A DNA stretch of 12,937 nucleotides from a virus: UHGV virus genome UHGV-0262016; one strand, given 5' to 3'. A program made the position numbers and the translations under genes. Positions 4,559-12,866 of the stretch are shown in pieces. Below the pieces are notes generated by a model, which was not told the origin of the DNA, made no database searches, and saw only the letters and a list, made by a program, of their open reading frames with translations. How positions within the stretch are numbered: position 1 is the first letter of the stretch; each line of letters opens with the position of its first letter.

Positions 4559-5035
4559 TTAAGTTCCTGTCTTGGTGATGTTCTGGCTTTTCCGTTTTGA
4601 TTCTTGATTTTTCAAATAGTTACCTACCTTCATTTCCATTGCGGCAATGTAGGCGCGAACGTCATGATCAACCCAACTAGGCTCCGTAGCATTTCCAGAT
4701 AAGAGGAAAGCTACAATTGCTCTTTTTTCATCAGAGGCGGCTTGATAAAGGCTGTTTATGTCTAAAAGTTCACTTTTTGTATTTGAAGTGGATGGGGTTG
4801 GTATGGGGTATTCGTTAAGCCCCCAATGCTCTGGACCAACCACATCAGAAAAGAAACGCCATAGTTCTGGAAGTTTATCTTTACTTATCGAACCTTTCTT
4901 AATCCAGTCATGGATTGATGGTGGTTGGACTTTGAAATGACGTGCGATCTCCGCCTTTGATTTGACGGCTCCTGATGCAATTTTTTTGTTAATGGCCTGC
5001 TCTATCGCTCGGCCCAAGTCTTTACCACTAAGCAT
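4559..5035 (-). CDS. racR: Prophage repressor, HTH (XRE/CI-like), 158 aa, RacR-like
   Basis: 158-aa ORF with an HTH-like segment (SKAEIARHFKVQPPSIHDWIKKG); SD GGAG 11 nt upstream. Divergent from a cro-like gene and flanked by operator palindromes. The 158/107/141-aa trio matches the Rac racR-ydaS-ydaT layout as recalled; symbol by synteny and length. Confidence 0.65.
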   Translation of the reverse strand: MLSGKDLGRAIEQAINKKIASGAVKSKAEIARHFKVQPPSIHDWIKKGSISKDKLPELWRFFSDVVGPEHWGLNEYPIPTPSTSNTKSELLDINSLYQAASDEKRAIVAFLLSGNATEPSWVDHDVRAYIAAMEMKVGNYLKNQESKRKSQNITKTGT

Positions 5036-5063
5036 TGCTTAATAGTCTCCTATGCGCATCGCG

Positions 5064-5132
5064 TTAGGCAATCCCTATGTTTAGTGCATTAGGCATAGCC
5101 TATTGACAATTGCGTTAGGCGAAGCCTAATAT
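5064..5132 (+). promoter_or_regulatory. OR/PR region: three operators (OR3 5064-5078, OR2 5089-5103, OR1 5115-5129) and the rightward promoter
   Basis: OR1 TTAGGCgaaGCCTAA is a perfect palindrome; OR2 TTAGGCataGCCTAT; OR3 TTAGGCaatCCCTAT is degenerate. Centres are 25-26 bp apart. -35 TTGACA 5103-5108, 18-bp spacer, -10 TAATAT 5127-5132; OR1 overlaps the spacer and -10. Confidence 0.65.
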
Positions 5133-5159
5133 CATTGTGTGTTTTTTGGAGTTCATTCG

Positions 5160-5483
5160 ATGAAAAAAGAGAACTATTCATTCAAACGGGCTTGTGCTGT
5201 TGTCGGTGGGCAATCAGCAATGGCTAGGCTTTTAGGTGTATCTCCTCCAAGCGTAAATCAATGGATCAAAGGTGTACGTCAGTTGCCTGCTGAGAGATGT
5301 CCTGCGATTGAACGAGCAACAAAAGGTGGTGTCCTGTGTGAAGAACTTCGTCCTGATGTTGATTGGTCATACTTACGACGCCCGTCATGTTATTCGCAGA
5401 ATATGTCGATGAAGCAACCAAATGACGAAAACGATCATACCCGAAGCATCAAGAGGCAAATGATTCATGAAAATCAAACATGA
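5160..5483 (+). CDS. ydaS: Cro/CII-like HTH protein (YdaS-like)
   Basis: ATG at 5160 with SD GGAG 8 nt upstream, about 28 nt after the PR -10. HTH-like GGQSAMARLLGVSPPSVNQWIKG. Divergent from the repressor. Confidence 0.6.
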   Translation: MKKENYSFKRACAVVGGQSAMARLLGVSPPSVNQWIKGVRQLPAERCPAIERATKGGVLCEELRPDVDWSYLRRPSCYSQNMSMKQPNDENDHTRSIKRQMIHENQT

Positions 5484-5892
5484 GCACATCCGCATGGCGA
5501 TGAATGCCTGGGCGCGTCCGGATGGTGAAAAAGTTCCGGTAGCCGAGATAACCAGGGTTTATTTCGAGCTGGGCATGACGTTTCCTGAGCTGTACGACGA
5601 CAGCCATCCGGAAGCCCTGGCCCGCAATACTCAGAAAATTTTCCGCTGGGTAGAGAAAGACACCCCTGATGCTGTTGAAAAAATTCAGGCGTTGTTACCA
5701 GCGATCGAAAAAGCAATGCCGCCTCTGCTGGTGGCCCGAATGCGCAGCCACAGTTCAGCCTTTTTTCGGGAACTGGTGGAGACGCGGGAACGACTGGTGA
5801 GAGACGCTGATGATTTTGTCGCAGTGGCGATCGCTGGTTTCAATCAGATGAATCGTGGTGGCCCGGCGGGAAATGCCGTGGTCGTTCATTAA
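5467..5892 (+). CDS. ydaT: YdaT-like protein (141 aa)
   Basis: ATG at 5467 overlaps the end of the previous gene; SD GAGG 10 nt upstream. Length and position as in Rac ydaT. Symbol by synteny. Confidence 0.55.
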   Translation: MKIKHEHIRMAMNAWARPDGEKVPVAEITRVYFELGMTFPELYDDSHPEALARNTQKIFRWVEKDTPDAVEKIQALLPAIEKAMPPLLVARMRSHSSAFFRELVETRERLVRDADDFVAVAIAGFNQMNRGGPAGNAVVVH

Positions 5893-5913: not shown

Positions 5914-6207
5914 ATGACATTTACAAATGAAGGTCGAATTGTTTTTGATTTTGAGTACGAAACACCATTGCAGAGATTGATTATGTTAAGAATTTTCTGC
6001 TCTGGGAGTGGTGATGGTGGGCGCGAAAAGCGTTTTGAAGATCAGGAATTCCGACGTTTTTGTTGTTGTACGTTTGATGAGTTTGAGCAGGCTATCGCGA
6101 AACTTATCGAGATGGGAGTGATTCATAAAATAAGTTATGGATATCAATACGGAAAGCCATCAAGCGGTTACATCATCAAAGATCCGGGTGAAATTATTCA
6201 GTTATGA
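5914..6207 (+). CDS. Hypothetical 97-aa protein, translationally coupled to the replication initiator
   Basis: SD AGGAG 7 nt upstream of ATG 5914; its stop overlaps the next start (ATGA at 6204-6207). Confidence 0.5.
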   Translation: MTFTNEGRIVFDFEYETPLQRLIMLRIFCSGSGDGGREKRFEDQEFRRFCCCTFDEFEQAIAKLIEMGVIHKISYGYQYGKPSSGYIIKDPGEIIQL

Positions 6208-7169
6208 GTCTTCTTTTTGCTGAACGTCCGCTGGTTATTAACACGCATCTGGCGATGAAAATTGGCCTGAACGAAGCCATCGTGTTGCAGCAGCTGCATT
6301 ACTGGTTGAGAGATACCGGTTCCGGCATGGAATGTGATGGTGTTCGCTGGATTTATAACACAACAGAACAATGGCTGGAACAGTTCCCGTTCTGGTCAGA
6401 GTCAACGTTAAAACGCGCATTTGCAAGTCTGAAAACGCTGGGGCTTTTGCGTTGCGAAAAGCTCAACAAATCAAAGCGTGACATGACTAATTTTTACACG
6501 ATTAATTACGAGAGCGAGCTTTTAGATGGTGGCAAAGTGAGCGAATCCATCAGGTCAAAATGCGCTGCTCCATCAGGTCAAAATGACACGATGGAAGAGG
6601 TCAAAATGAAACGCTCCATTGGTTCAAAACGACCCAATGTCATCGGGTCAAAATGGCCCGATGATCTTACAGAGAATACAACAGAGATTACTACAGAGAA
6701 TAAAAATACTTCTCGTCCGGAAGCTTCGCAACCGGACCCGCAGACGGCTGAACAGGATTTTTTAACCCGGCACCCTGACGCGGTTGTGTTCAGTGCGAAA
6801 AAACGCCGATGGGGAAGCCAGGAAGATTTGGCGTGTGCGCAGTGGATCTGGGGGCGGGTTGTAAACCTGTACGAACAGGCTGCCAGCGACGATGGCGAGA
6901 TCACGCGACCGAAAGAGCCCAACTGGACGGAATGGGCCAATGACGTGCGCACAATGCGGATGCTTGATGGCAGAACTCACAGGCAAATTTGCGAAATGTT
7001 TGGTCGGGTACAGCGGGATCCCTTTTGGGTAAAAAATATCATGAGTCCGTCAAAGCTTCGTGAAAAATGGGACGAACTGGTCATCCGCCTGGGGCGTTCG
7101 CCTGTACAGCGTTGTGTGAATCACATTTCTGAACCGGACACTGAAATTCCGCCGGGGTTCAGGGGGTGA
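6204..7169 (+). CDS. Replication initiator (lambda O-like origin-binding protein) with the origin iterons inside its coding sequence
   Basis: 321-aa ORF. Its central linker is encoded by five ~23-bp iterons followed by an AT-rich repeat block, the hallmark of lambdoid O genes. Confidence 0.7.
   Translation: MSLLFAERPLVINTHLAMKIGLNEAIVLQQLHYWLRDTGSGMECDGVRWIYNTTEQWLEQFPFWSESTLKRAFASLKTLGLLRCEKLNKSKRDMTNFYTINYESELLDGGKVSESIRSKCAAPSGQNDTMEEVKMKRSIGSKRPNVIGSKWPDDLTENTTEITTENKNTSRPEASQPDPQTAEQDFLTRHPDAVVFSAKKRRWGSQEDLACAQWIWGRVVNLYEQAASDDGEITRPKEPNWTEWANDVRTMRMLDGRTHRQICEMFGRVQRDPFWVKNIMSPSKLREKWDELVIRLGRSPVQRCVNHISEPDTEIPPGFRG
6545..6702. repeat. Putative phage replication origin: five iterons (core GGTCAAAATG at 6553, 6576, 6599, ~6621, 6646) plus three 12-bp-phased ACAGAGA(A/T)TA repeats (6669, 6681, 6693)
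   Basis: Iteron copies 1 and 2 share 17 identical bases (TCCATCAGGTCAAAATG). Spacing is 22-25 bp (about two helical turns). An AT-rich block follows immediately. Confidence 0.65.
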
Positions 7170-8520: not shown

Positions 8521-8854
8521 GTTAAGTAATATTGTTTTATTTCCGGTAAAAGAGGATGACCCGCGTAATCAGGTTAATTTTCTTTATGAGCCATCGGAAA
8601 GACCATATTGTCATCACGCTTCTGTCCAGGTTGACGAAAAAGAGCGTCAGGTCCGCTGTAAAATCTGCGGTGCAGTTGTGGAGCCGTTTGACTGGATGCT
8701 CTCTGTGGCGAAAAGAGAAACCAGACTGGCAGATGATGTAAGGCTATTGCGCCAGGAGGAACGGGAAAGACGGAAAAATATAGAAAAGTTAATTCAGATT
8801 GAGCGTAACGCGAAAGCGCGGATACGCAGGGCGACAAAATCCAGAACTGAATAA
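8498..8854 (+). CDS. Hypothetical 118-aa protein with Cys/His cluster (CHH...CxxC), possible zinc ribbon
   Basis: ATG at 8498 with SD AGGAGAGGAG immediately upstream; overlaps the end of the previous gene. The track's longer start at 8417 lacks an SD. Confidence 0.5.
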   Translation: MQIKPEDELSNIVLFPVKEDDPRNQVNFLYEPSERPYCHHASVQVDEKERQVRCKICGAVVEPFDWMLSVAKRETRLADDVRLLRQEERERRKNIEKLIQIERNAKARIRRATKSRTE

Positions 8855-8918
8855 TTAAATTTGGCACTGTTAAAAATTTTATCCTTAACCGGAGGGATTT
8901 CTGCACCCTCAGAACATC

Positions 8919-8949
8919 AGGAGGCCGCCCGAAAGGGCGGTAATAAATA
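8919..8949 (+). promoter_or_regulatory. Structured translation-initiation region: SD AGGAGG, then a GC hairpin with GAAA tetraloop (CCGCCC-GAAA-GGGCGG, 8925-8940), then 9 nt to the ATG
   Basis: SD-to-ATG distance is 25 nt in linear sequence but about 9 nt if the 16-nt hairpin forms. A second hairpin GAGGG/CCCTC lies at 8892-8910. Confidence 0.4.
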
Positions 8950-9426
8950 ATGCAAGAAATCAAAGAAAATATCAGACAACAGCTTTACGGGTTTTATATT
9001 GCTTATGATTTGTGGCTGAGTAATGGGGCGAAACCCGGCGGGGTGTTTTCTCAAAGTTATGGTTTATGCGCCAATCTTTTTGATTATCTCACATTAATTG
9101 GTGCCCCCAGCGAAGCGGCACTGGAACAATTACACACGGATTTCAGAAGTACCGGGCTGAATGAGGTGTTGCCATTTAACGAGAGTAAAGGGCATTACTA
9201 TGAAGAAAAAGGGAACAACATGTGCCATATGAATCCGGCGCGGGCGGCGTGGGTCAGGGCACAGATGGTGCAGGCAGTGCCGGACGGACTGGTTAAGGCT
9301 GTACGCTTCTATGAACAGGTAAAGTGTGAGAATCCGCCAGCTGAAACCGGAGCATGGAAAGACGCTGTTGACTGGGTACTCAAGGAGGCCTGCCAGGCTG
9401 TAAACATTGGCAACAAAGGAGAGTGA
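8950..9426 (+). CDS. Hypothetical 158-aa protein
   Basis: ORF starting at ATG 8950 behind the structured leader; its stop abuts the next gene's start. No family recognised. Confidence 0.55.
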   Translation: MQEIKENIRQQLYGFYIAYDLWLSNGAKPGGVFSQSYGLCANLFDYLTLIGAPSEAALEQLHTDFRSTGLNEVLPFNESKGHYYEEKGNNMCHMNPARAAWVRAQMVQAVPDGLVKAVRFYEQVKCENPPAETGAWKDAVDWVLKEACQAVNIGNKGE

Positions 9427-9427
9427 T

Positions 9428-9646
9428 GTGCCTACATTATTCAGAAAAGAATATCCGCGAAAAAGTAGAGCGACAGAATTTTTGTTTCTCATTCTGTTTA
9501 TCGTGTTGATGACACCGATATCCCCGCTAATTTTTGTCTGGGCAATCGGGAAAATAATTGAGCCAGTTATTGAATTGTATAACGACGTGGTATGGGCGTC
9601 ATTCAACACACTGCACAATAAAATTAATCCGTATAAGGAAAGCTGA
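9428..9646 (+). CDS. Small membrane protein (72 aa, one predicted transmembrane helix)
   Basis: GTG at 9428 with SD AAGGAG 6 nt upstream, directly after the previous stop. Hydrophobic core FLFLILFIVLMTPISPLIFVWAIG. The track's TTG start at 9407 was rejected. Confidence 0.4.
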   Translation: MPTLFRKEYPRKSRATEFLFLILFIVLMTPISPLIFVWAIGKIIEPVIELYNDVVWASFNTLHNKINPYKES

Positions 9647-11051: not shown

Positions 11052-11060
11052 CAAACAAAA

Positions 11061-11087
11061 ACCCCGGATTGATGGTCCGGGGTTTTT
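11061..11087 (+). terminator. Strong intrinsic terminator at the end of the rightward early gene cluster
   Basis: Perfect 8-bp stem ACCCCGGA/TCCGGGGT with 7-nt loop, followed by TTTTT; an A-tract lies upstream. Confidence 0.8.
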
Positions 11088-11423
11088 GAAGGAAACAAAA
11101 CAGAAACAACAATTGCCGTTACCTGTTGTTACCATGGCAAGTAAACGCATCTCAGGCGAGCGCATTGCACCGTTCTGACGCAGATAAATTAGCCTGGATA
11201 GATGGTGCTGGCAATAAAAAATAGCGTTTTCTTATCGGTGTCGGTAAGATTGCTGCGGGTGCTTGAGGCTGTCTGCCTCGGGCATGCCACTGTAAGGCAG
11301 GCAGAGAAAAGCCCCAGTTAACATTACGCGTCCGGCAAGACGCTTAACATTAATCTGAGGCTCCCTATGCATGACAACATCAGGTTAGCCTCTTACGTGC
11401 CGAAAGGCAAGGAGAAGCAGGCT

Positions 11424-11579
11424 ATGAAGCAGCAAAAGGCGATGTTAATCGCCCTGATCGTCATCTGTTTAACCGTCATAGTGACGGCACTGGTAACGAG
11501 GAAAGACCTCTGCGAGGTACGAATCCGAACCGGCCAGACGGAGGTCGCTGTCTTCGTAGACTACGAATCTAGAGAGTAA
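11424..11579 (+). CDS. hokD: Hok/Gef-family type I toxin (51 aa), HokD/RelF-like
   Basis: Product MKQQKAMLIALIVICLTVIVTALVTRKDLCEVRIRTGQTEVAVFVDYESRE is a Hok-family signature, nearly identical to HokD/RelF as recalled. SD GGAG 9 nt upstream. An in-frame upstream ATG at 11367 (SD GAGG 6 nt upstream) gives a 70-aa mok-like extended frame. Confidence 0.8.
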   Translation: MKQQKAMLIALIVICLTVIVTALVTRKDLCEVRIRTGQTEVAVFVDYESRE

Positions 11580-11649: not shown

Positions 11650-11670
11650 AACCCGCTTCGGCGGGTTTTT
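11650..11670 (+). terminator. Intrinsic terminator at the hok mRNA 3' end
   Basis: AACCCGC-TTCG-GCGGGTT followed by TTTTT. The same 20-bp core recurs at 12498-12517. Confidence 0.75.
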
Positions 11671-11685
11671 CGTCGCATTATGAGG

Positions 11686-11976: not shown

Positions 11977-11994
11977 TGATGGGTATTGTGCTCT

Positions 11995-12480
11995 ATGGCT
12001 GAGATTGTTGAAGGAGTGCATTACCTTACGGTTGATGATCTTGTTGAAATCAATCGTTCCCTAATTGAATTACAGACGCCAGATGAGCCCGTTGGTGTTC
12101 TGAGTCCAGATAACTTAAGTTCTTCTCAGGCCCGTCCCAGCATGGTTCGATGGTATGAACAGACTAATGACATGTTTGTACTGGCATCGGTATTGATTGA
12201 AAGTCTGATTCAGAATCACCCGTTTGCTAATGCGAACAAACGAACAGCTATGATGGCTGGTTACGTCTTCTTGTTGTTGAATGGCTATGAGTTAACAGCA
12301 CCAGGCGATGAAATCGTGGAAATGGCAGAGGGACTGGCCTGCAAAATCTATACTCGAGAAGATCTCGAGAACTGGTTGTGTTATTGGTCTCGCGCGTATG
12401 ACAGCCGGGAATTATGTAAAACAGGCGCAACTATTGTTTTGTATGAAACTATCAAGCTTAAAATAGAACAGCAAAACTAA
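11995..12480 (+). CDS. Doc-family (Fic/Doc fold) toxin, 161 aa
   Basis: Contains the Doc signature H-x-F-x-N-A-N-K-R (HPFANANKRTAMMAGYVFLLLNGYEL); the N-terminal segment (YLTVDDLVEINRSLIE) is also Doc-like. Start taken as ATG 11995; a TTG at 11986 is possible. Confidence 0.75.
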   Translation: MAEIVEGVHYLTVDDLVEINRSLIELQTPDEPVGVLSPDNLSSSQARPSMVRWYEQTNDMFVLASVLIESLIQNHPFANANKRTAMMAGYVFLLLNGYELTAPGDEIVEMAEGLACKIYTREDLENWLCYWSRAYDSRELCKTGATIVLYETIKLKIEQQN

Positions 12481-12496
12481 AGGTGCTTCCAATGAA

Positions 12497-12518
12497 AACC
12501 CGCTTCGGCGGGTTTTTT
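12497..12518 (+). terminator. Intrinsic terminator after the Doc gene (second copy of the 20-bp terminator repeat)
   Basis: AAAACCCGC-TTCG-GCGGG followed by TTTTTT; core identical to 11651-11670. Confidence 0.75.
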
Positions 12519-12593
12519 GTTTTACGTATTCTGGTTTACAATCCACAGGCCAGCCTGAACAACTGGCACCTGCTGCGCCAGCAGAGAAAACCG

Positions 12594-12866
12594 ATGGCGC
12601 ACAATACCAAACATCACAATTCTGATACCGACCTTGCCAGCAGGCACGGGCGGCGTTCTCATACATTCAAATATGACTGGTACCAGCATGATCCATGCAC
12701 TGAAGAACAGGCCGAATGGCTGATTCAGAACTACCGCAGACGCGGATACGAGATTAAGAAAGCCCTCAGCCTCGATTATCGTCACTGGATAATCTACGTC
12801 AGGCTGCCGTACTCCGAGCGCCCACCGCGTCCGTCCCGTACATTCCAGCAACGCATCTGGAGGTAA
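12594..12866 (+). CDS. Hypothetical 90-aa basic protein (possibly Rem-like by position after hok)
   Basis: Start taken as ATG 12594 because the upstream part of track ORF 12483..12866 runs across the terminator hairpin. SD is weak. Positional analogy to Qin rem only. Confidence 0.4.
   Translation: MAHNTKHHNSDTDLASRHGRRSHTFKYDWYQHDPCTEEQAEWLIQNYRRRGYEIKKALSLDYRHWIIYVRLPYSERPPRPSRTFQQRIWR

Follow-up and report, generated by a model that had tools for sequence, protein, structure and literature searches.

The window analysed here, a stretch of 12,937 nucleotides (nt) from the virus genome UHGV-0262016, is a lambdoid, Rac-like prophage. In a 95-nt gap of this prophage, between a zinc-ribbon open reading frame (ORF) and an ORF of 158 amino acids (aa), a strong Shine–Dalgarno (SD) sequence, a G+C-rich hairpin (H2), a short A/U-rich spacer and the start codon follow one another at the downstream end of a conserved intergenic cassette (Table 1). 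We describe this arrangement as a candidate split ribosome-binding site (RBS), in which the hairpin would bring a distant SD within reach of the ATG. A preliminary description, made from the sequence alone, had placed an AGGAGG 25 nt from the ATG, too far for normal initiation, had proposed that a 6-base-pair (bp) GC stem with a GAAA loop shortens this distance to about 9 nt, and had suggested structure-dependent translational control of the 158-aa gene.

Table 1. Features of the intergenic element and of its surroundings in the window.
Feature	Position	Strand	Basis or remark
Whole conserved intergenic cassette	8847-8949	+	Homology to other prophages; flanking genes differ
5' edge CTGAATAATTAA, stops in all three frames (TGA 8848, TAA 8852, TAA 8856)	8847-8858	+	Read from sequence
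Weak A/U hairpin CUGAAU/AUUUGG, loop AAUUAA	8847-8864	+	-0.6 kcal/mol; significance doubtful
Conserved AUCCUUAAC, anti-SD look-alike	8881-8889	+	UCCUUA is the 3' end of 16S rRNA
GGAGGG, first SD-like motif, 5' arm of upstream hairpin	8891-8896	+	Anti-SD energy
Upstream hairpin (H1), GAGGG 8892-8896/CCCUC 8906-8910, 9-nt loop	8892-8910	+	5 bp, -5.8 kcal/mol
Competing CCUC 8907-8910:GAGG 8921-8924, would sequester the SD and stack on H2	8907-8924	+	Predicted
Gene-specific long-range 10-bp helix, GGGAUUUCUGCA 8894-8905 with UGCAAGAAAUC 8951-8961, covers UG of the start codon	8894-8961	+	Predicted
SD sequence AGGAGG	8919-8924	+	Read from sequence
Main hairpin (H2), CCGCCC-GAAA-GGGCGG, optional seventh pair G8924-U8941	8925-8940	+	Folding and comparison
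A/U-rich unstructured spacer TAATAAATA (as RNA UAAUAAAUA)	8941-8949	+	Unpaired in folding
Start codon ATG of the 158-aa ORF	8950-8952	+	ORF list
158-aa ORF after the cassette	8950-9426	+	ORF list, homologues; no Pfam family, PHROG families of unknown function
158-aa ORF in repressor position	4559-5035	-	No Pfam or PHROG match
Transcriptional-repressor-family and CII-like genes	5139-5892
321-aa ORF	6204-7169		No Pfam match; position of replication genes in related prophages
DUF977 and DUF4406 genes, Ead/Ea22 gene, zinc-ribbon ORF	ending 8854
95-nt gap with the hairpin element, then the 158-aa gene	between 8854 and 8950
Further downstream: DUF4014 and HNH genes, hok/sok, Doc-like toxin

The two arms of H2 (8925-8930 and 8935-8940) form a perfect 6-nt inverted repeat with 4 nt (8931-8934) between them, as found by a repeat search of the window, and the 5' arm follows the SD without a gap. 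Folding predictions gave -12.4 kcal/mol for this hairpin alone and -14.4 kcal/mol when the seventh pair was included, and its pair probabilities were 0.99-1.0 in all contexts folded, from 62 to 250 nt. The positions 8942-8950 behind it were predicted to be unpaired with a probability of at least 0.99. The distance from the SD to the ATG is 25 nt in the linear sequence and 9 nt with the 16-nt hairpin looped out; the coordinates and distances of the preliminary description were thus exact, and the stem that it had read from the letters was reproduced by folding.

The affinity for the anti-SD was examined by sliding 9-nt windows along the region and computing the duplex energy with the 3' tail of 16S rRNA. 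The AGGAGG gave -10.3 kcal/mol, and the spacer windows gave +0.8 to +1.8 kcal/mol, that is, no anti-SD affinity. The 3' arm of H2 (AGGGCGGUA) would reach -7.9 kcal/mol if it were single-stranded, but its GGGCGGU was ruled out energetically as the true SD, being locked in the -12.4 kcal/mol stem. This leaves AGGAGG as the one usable SD, and the scan found no alternative at a canonical distance for the 158-aa gene, which bears out the claim that the SD lies too far away for ordinary initiation. The preliminary description had allowed for a different start of the gene. This is unlikely because an in-frame TAA (8944-8946) excludes any start earlier than the ATG, all full-length homologues in the protein database begin with MQEIKEN, MQDIKEN or MQETKEN, and the RefSeq annotation of a copy with 96% identity (locus L001) starts at the same ATG.

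Hairpins of this kind are in themselves not unusual: the window contains four 6-bp stems with at least five G-C pairs, compared with 1.6 ± 1.35 in shuffled sequences. The placement and the recurrence of H2 are beyond chance, and the 21-mer consisting of GGAGG and the hairpin was never expected in the shuffles.

BLAST comparisons showed that the homology to other phages and Escherichia coli genomes begins near 8847 or 8881 and stops 1-2 nt before the ATG, and that the intergenic block recurs widely whereas the flanking genes do not. The 69-nt core 8881-8949 was found in 2358 of 5426 complete E. coli genomes (43%), in a total of 2997 copies and with up to five copies per genome. Among GenBank phages, only 21 records contained the core, all of them coliphages except one labelled Actinobacillus. 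When one genome per bacterial species was scanned with the upstream hairpin as the anchor, matches were confined to E. coli and Shigella, apart from two in Labrys and in a Bacillota metagenome-assembled genome, which have unrelated flanks and were set aside as chance matches. The cassette is absent from the Rac and Qin prophages of E. coli K-12.

For a closer comparison, 171 viral contigs collected with two different sequence anchors gave 180 copies of the cassette, 88 of them unique in sequence. In these contigs and in individual loci, the genes behind the cassette belong to at least six unrelated families, and it precedes genes of the DUF7167 (read in L002, a locus of the sequenced strain E. 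coli JJ1886), DUF4014 (L003) and DUF551 (L004) types, a 43-aa gene, a 66-aa gene and the family of the 158-aa gene (L001). The spacer between the end of the stem and the ATG measures 6, 7, 8 or 9 nt across the gene families, and 11 nt only in a family whose spacer holds a GGAG of its own; in the loci read, the ATGs placed by the cassette agree with the RefSeq start annotations. GGAG, and then G, A or T, stands immediately before the hairpin in 179 of 179 sampled copies, and the GGAG is invariant in 45 of 45 unique cores.

In six contigs the two halves of the cassette are found apart. There the 5' half (…AATCCTTAACTGGAGG, 7 nt and ATG; TGGAGG) provides a 72-aa gene with an ordinary SD. The stop of this gene is followed by the 3' half on its own (GGGAGG, hairpin, TAAGAA and ATG), with a DUF4014 gene behind it. 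The SD, hairpin, spacer and ATG are therefore a separable unit, and since this 3' half occurs without the upstream half, H1 is not needed for it. In one of these contigs (L017, reverse strand, 4935-5255) and its five sister contigs, where the 72-aa gene splits the cassette, a complete cassette also lies 1 kb downstream in the same operon. The DUF4014 family itself uses both kinds of start: an ordinary SD where the gene overlaps the preceding one, and the hairpin cassette where it follows a gap, as in L003. The DUF4014 gene of the window, with a GTG at 9428, is of the first kind, its SD (GGAG 9418-9421, spacing 6 nt) lying within the end of the 158-aa gene before the TGA 9424-9426.

Some related sequences were noted in the course of these comparisons. 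Copies in Shigella flexneri (L174) and E. coli ECMA0423 (L176) end right after the hairpin (…GGGCGG followed by GGAGCAGTCACACATCTG…), possibly owing to an insertion element. A look-alike on an unrelated metagenomic phage contig (L180, 10392-10420; GGAGA-CCTCCC-GAAA-GGGAGG-TTTTCTT-ATG) looks more like a terminator overlapping a start region, as its 3' arm doubles as an SD and a run of T comes after it. No other credible SD–hairpin–ATG family was found in 1.7 Mb of related prophage DNA; a second candidate, GAGG followed by GCGGCGCAAGATTTTTTGTGCGC and ATG, was dropped because it belonged to a short antisense ORF inside another gene.

The stem of H2 was compared in 179 copies. Its pairs were all Watson–Crick in 122 copies, Watson–Crick together with G-U in 43, and interrupted by one or two mismatches in 14; all six pairs, counting G-U, were retained in 92%. 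Changes from C to U in the 5' arm, which keep a G-U pair, were common (45 of the 179 copies, at four sites), and changes from G to A in the 3' arm, which break the pair, were rare (eight copies, with three or fewer per haplotype). One stem pair showed the full series of G-C, an A-C intermediate, a compensated A-U and G-U, and the compensated lineage CCACCC/GGGTGG (pair 3-14) was present in seven contigs. Targeted scans for double changes gave no hits for the pairs 2-15 and 5-12 and only unrelated sequences for the pairs 4-13 and 6-11. The optional seventh pair varied between G-U, A-U and G-C, the change of G8924 to A turning G-U into A-U. The loop occurred as GAAA, UAAA, GGCA and AAAA, and since its sequence is free to vary, it is the stem rather than the loop that is kept. 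This pattern of substitutions points to an RNA stem on the plus strand and suggests structural selection.

The upstream part of the cassette consists, in order, of the three-frame stop, an A/U-rich stretch and a set of SD-like and anti-SD-like motifs, behind which come the SD, the hairpin and the spacer. The second stop of the 5' edge, TAA 8852-8854, closes the zinc-ribbon ORF, and the edge motif is kept behind several different upstream genes; in the sampled loci, long upstream ORFs were closed only in the frame of this TAA. The positions of the weak A/U hairpin at this edge pair as CTGAAT/ATTCAG or ATTTAG in other copies, and its significance is doubtful. The anti-SD look-alike AUCCUUAAC is almost invariant, even in the sample collected with an anchor located elsewhere, and its CCU (8883-8885) was paired with AGG 8919-8921 in the RNAalifold consensus as well as in the minimum-energy fold of 8880-8952. 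The GGAGGG behind it is the strongest anti-SD partner of the region (-12.0 kcal/mol), and the stretch between it and the SD reads AUUUCUGCA-CCCUC-AGAACAUCA.

The GGAGGG and CCCUC contribute the arms of H1, which the preliminary description had noted as a second hairpin just upstream. It is indeed present in the sequence, but it is weak and appears marginal, being out-competed in the folding predictions: its probability was 0.93 when the RNA stopped at the ATG and 0.002 when 20 nt of the coding sequence of the 158-aa gene were added. In some prophages its 5' arm is the SD of a gene. Of 180 sampled copies, 13 have it disrupted by a G-to-T change (GGATGG), and the remaining variation consists of G-U pairs or mismatches only, with no compensatory change. 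In the window it is predicted to lose to two other pairings. One of these, the CCUC:GAGG helix, had a probability of 0.56-0.82 in the native context of the window and is broken in 10 of 45 unique variants, in which G8924 is A or T. The other, the long-range helix, was part of the minimum-energy structure in every context with at least 20 coding nt; its dependence on the first codons of the 158-aa gene sets it apart from the features of the cassette. A weaker long-range helix, judged by eye, seems possible with the start of the DUF7167 gene (AUGCGAAAG). Across the 88 unique copies the predicted accessibility of the SD ranged from 0.16 to 0.93 (median 0.52) without a consistent pattern, and since it varied with the downstream gene, no conserved switch was seen.

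The natural precedents for such an architecture are the split sites of phage T4 (Nivinskas et al. 1999; Malys & Nivinskas 2009; reviewed in PMC3014915), in which an intervening hairpin reduces the distance between SD and AUG from 22 to 5 nt in gene 38 and from 27 to 11 nt in gene 25, as was proven by destabilizing mutations, lacZ fusions, dimethyl sulfate probing and conservation among T-even phages (PMC3014915). General literature searches returned only this T4 precedent, and a full-text search for the sequence of the hairpin found no paper containing it. For the class we asked for a strong SD more than about 15 nt from the start, a hairpin lying wholly between the two, a looped-out spacing of about 5-11 nt and no alternative SD. 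At the level of the sequence, the element shows a distant strong SD, a stable intervening hairpin, a functional residual spacing and no other SD. It thus resembles the T4 sites in its excessive linear distance (22 and 27 nt in T4, 25 nt here), in a hairpin confined to the interval and leaving a functional 5-11 nt (9 nt here and 6-9 nt in the sister copies), in the length of the looped-out segment (16-17 nt as implied by the T4 spacings, 16 nt here), and in serving phage genes expressed in E. coli. Unlike the T4 sites, with which it shares no sequence homology, its SD abuts the stem with no linker, and it is mobile and precedes at least six unrelated genes, whereas each T4 element sits at one orthologous gene junction. 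The T4 sites are experimentally proven, whereas the cassette is described here by sequence analysis.

On these grounds we regard it as somewhat better than an even chance that the SD, hairpin and ATG are a constitutive split ('accommodated') RBS of the kind known from T4 genes 25 and 38, situated within a portable cassette for gene junctions. In the mechanism that we propose, H2 would fold essentially always on the mRNA of the early rightward operon of the prophage, as thermodynamic prediction indicates. Folding would loop out 16 of the 25 nt and reduce the effective distance between SD and AUG to 9 nt (6-9 nt in the sister copies), within the span of the 30S subunit, a step that we infer from the geometry and from the T4 precedent. 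The 30S subunit would then bind AGGAGG, with the A/U-rich spacer single-stranded and the AUG entering the P site. The split site would form the 3' part of the portable cassette, which is about 100 nt long and made up of an all-frame stop, an A/U stretch, a first SD-like motif and the SD with its hairpin and spacer, and which the lambdoid prophages of Escherichia and Shigella place before many different small accessory genes, downstream of the replication genes. The suggestion that translation of the 158-aa gene depends on structure may therefore stand as the best reading of the element, though not as a property of that gene, as the cassette is shared by at least six families. The word 'control' fits less well. 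H2 is predicted to be too stable to melt, and it is too invariant, so that a fixed and constitutive spacing device is likeliest and is favoured over a switch; a modulating role for the anti-SD look-alikes is possible.

Several observations weigh against this interpretation. The SD is predicted to be partly paired with the upstream anti-SD-like motifs, with an unpaired probability of 0.28 for the copy in the window. One or two mismatches occur in the stem in 8% of the copies. Covariation was not significant, as about 300 of 500 shuffles reached the observed scores (45 distinct sequences, 95% column identity) and the RNAalifold covariation term was -0.09; the lack of significance is due to the identity of about 95% between the copies. 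The stem is hardly better conserved than the unpaired parts of the cassette, and the conservation could reflect recent spread or recombination instead of selection on the stem. That the 30S subunit tolerates an SD abutting the stem without a linker is an assumption. The SD of the cassette is not always needed, given that the spacer of one gene family contains a separate SD, and the A/U-rich spacer might support initiation without an SD.

Other roles for the hairpin were considered. It could act as an insulator or stabilizer against upstream structure or against 5'-to-3' decay (RNase E entry), with initiation proceeding through the A/U-rich spacer and the distant SD playing a minor part. The high stability of the hairpin, the GNRA-type loop of most copies, the fully unpaired spacer and the many sequence contexts that a portable cassette meets would all suit such a role, but it leaves unexplained why an invariant GGAG always abuts the stem and why the spacer length stays in the range of SD spacing, and in the window the hairpin is not predicted to stop long-range pairing across it; we consider this role unlikely, if the least unlikely of the alternatives. 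A protein-binding operator, recognized either in the manner of boxB by an N-type antiterminator or by a phage translational repressor that would block SD and AUG, is much less probable. The boxB hairpin of phage lambda is GCCCUGAAAAAGGGC, and lambdoid nut sites have a boxA (CGCUCUUA-like) on the same strand, a few nt before boxB, whose GNRA-like pentaloop is recognized by N. The short G+C stem with its purine-rich loop (GCCC-GAAA-GGGC) brings this hairpin to mind, both occur in a lambdoid early operon, and a position between SD and AUG would suit a repressor. However, H2 has a tetraloop that varies between copies, no boxA-like match (YGCTCTTWA, at most one mismatch) was found on the plus strand of 8700-8925, the element is situated not beside the early promoters but farther downstream, about 3.8 kb past the repressor/Cro-like region (4559-5483), a single operon can hold two copies about 1 kb from each other, and the hairpin is always fused to an SD in front and followed by an ATG. 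Its identity as a boxA/boxB nut site was rejected on the missing boxA and the variable tetraloop. There is least to be said for an intrinsic terminator or attenuator closing off the upstream gene, which we hold to be very improbable: although a stable G+C-rich stem does lie 70 nt past a stop codon, as in a terminator, no variant has a U-tract after it (TAATAAATA, TAGTTAA, TAAGAA and others), CCTCCTGATG comes after the stem on the opposite strand, the terminator scan did not flag it, and the three real terminators of the window all have runs of five or six T. No promoter was reported by a scan of the window in the A/U-rich part of the cassette, and Rfam gave no family at the gathering score and, at a permissive threshold, only chance-level hits (E-values 3.2 and 5.6) in 8780-9020.

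Two further explanations concern the cassette as a whole. According to one, it is only a recently spread DNA-level homology patch, a mosaic 'linker', on which the hairpin and SD-like motifs hitch-hike without a function in RNA while the downstream genes initiate by whatever works. The near-uniform identity of the block, unpaired parts included, the coincidence of homology breakpoints with gene ends, the restriction to Escherichia and Shigella and the non-significant covariation are what this explanation would lead one to expect. It does not account for a stem-to-ATG distance held at 6-9 nt over at least six independent gene junctions, for the invariant GGAG, for the excess of pair-preserving over pair-breaking substitutions with one compensated lineage, or for the lack of any other SD for the downstream genes, and as the sole explanation it is improbable, ranking just behind the insulator. 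A role as a linker is nevertheless compatible with a split RBS and is likely to be true in addition. According to the other explanation, the region is a regulated switch in which UCCUUA 8882-8887 and CCCUC 8906-8910 compete with GGAGGG 8891-8896 for the true SD, and temperature, a factor or ribosomes on the upstream motif would turn translation on or off. Alternative folds are indeed predicted, with H1 freeing the SD and CCUC:GAGG or CCU:AGG sequestering it, and the motifs involved are highly conserved. Yet the sequestering helices have just 3-4 bp, neither helix is backed by compensatory change, the predicted accessibility of the SD varies widely between copies and depends on the downstream gene, one sequestering pair is lost in the variants with A or T at 8924, H1 is broken in the GGATGG copies, and the module in contigs such as L017 stands without the switch motifs. 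We therefore give a switch only a slight chance, below that of the linker and above that of the operator.

The cassette probably also serves as a homology patch that allows genes to be swapped while a working translation start is kept, since gene boundaries are found at the two ends of the conserved block. For lambdoid phages, Clark and colleagues, writing on HK620 in 2001, are said to have discussed 'boundary' or 'linker' sequences proposed at module junctions under the modular theory. Like such sequences, the cassette is a short conserved non-coding block between non-homologous genes with breakpoints at its edges, which fits a recombination patch; unlike them, it has recognizable expression signals, namely the three-frame stop and the SD, hairpin and ATG. 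In a stronger and more tentative form, which we think possible but would not bet on, 8847-8949 would be a self-contained mobile gene-junction cassette that ends any upstream frame, starts any downstream gene through a context-independent split RBS whose hairpin fixes the geometry of SD and AUG, and, being identical between prophages, acts as the crossover point for swaps of accessory genes. If so, it would be a natural counterpart of synthetic insulated expression cassettes and a molecular basis for the exchange of lambdoid modules.

The order of genes in the window (Table 1) places the element deep in the early rightward operon, in the accessory-gene region after the replication genes. The protein encoded at 8950-9426 is itself mosaic, its last approximately 55 residues recurring at the C-termini of Ead/Ea22-like proteins and of proteins starting with MTELTK…, and some of its relatives carry a 52-residue C-terminal extension (210 aa). 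Farther downstream there is a hok/sok-type toxin–antitoxin RNA locus at 11257-11429 (Rfam RF01794, sok; 109.6 bits, E 1e-24), followed by the Doc-like toxin gene at 11986-12480 (phrog_577, E 1.4e-50). The three intrinsic terminators with T-runs are located at 11058-11088, 11650-11671 and 12498-12519; the latter two are identical (AACCCGCTTCGGCGGGTTTTT) and about 850 nt apart. The last one lies inside the listed ORF 12483-12866, the real start of which must be later because its PHROG match covers residues 62-127 only.

In the T4 review (PMC3014915), genes 38 and 25 of T4 are the only natural split RBSs. A third, unrelated one would mean that the mechanism is no T4 curiosity; the cassette is present in nearly half of the sequenced E. 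coli genomes, in front of several gene families. Start-site predictors and RBS-strength calculators that assume a linear spacing of SD and AUG would then mis-score the genes behind the cassette. The cassette would offer an easily testable natural system, as stem and wobble variants and one compensated variant already exist. Should it also be a crossover point, it would provide a concrete and testable 'boundary sequence' in lambdoid mosaicism. The mechanism itself is already established for T4; what the cassette adds is a link between the architecture of translation starts and the mosaicism of prophages.

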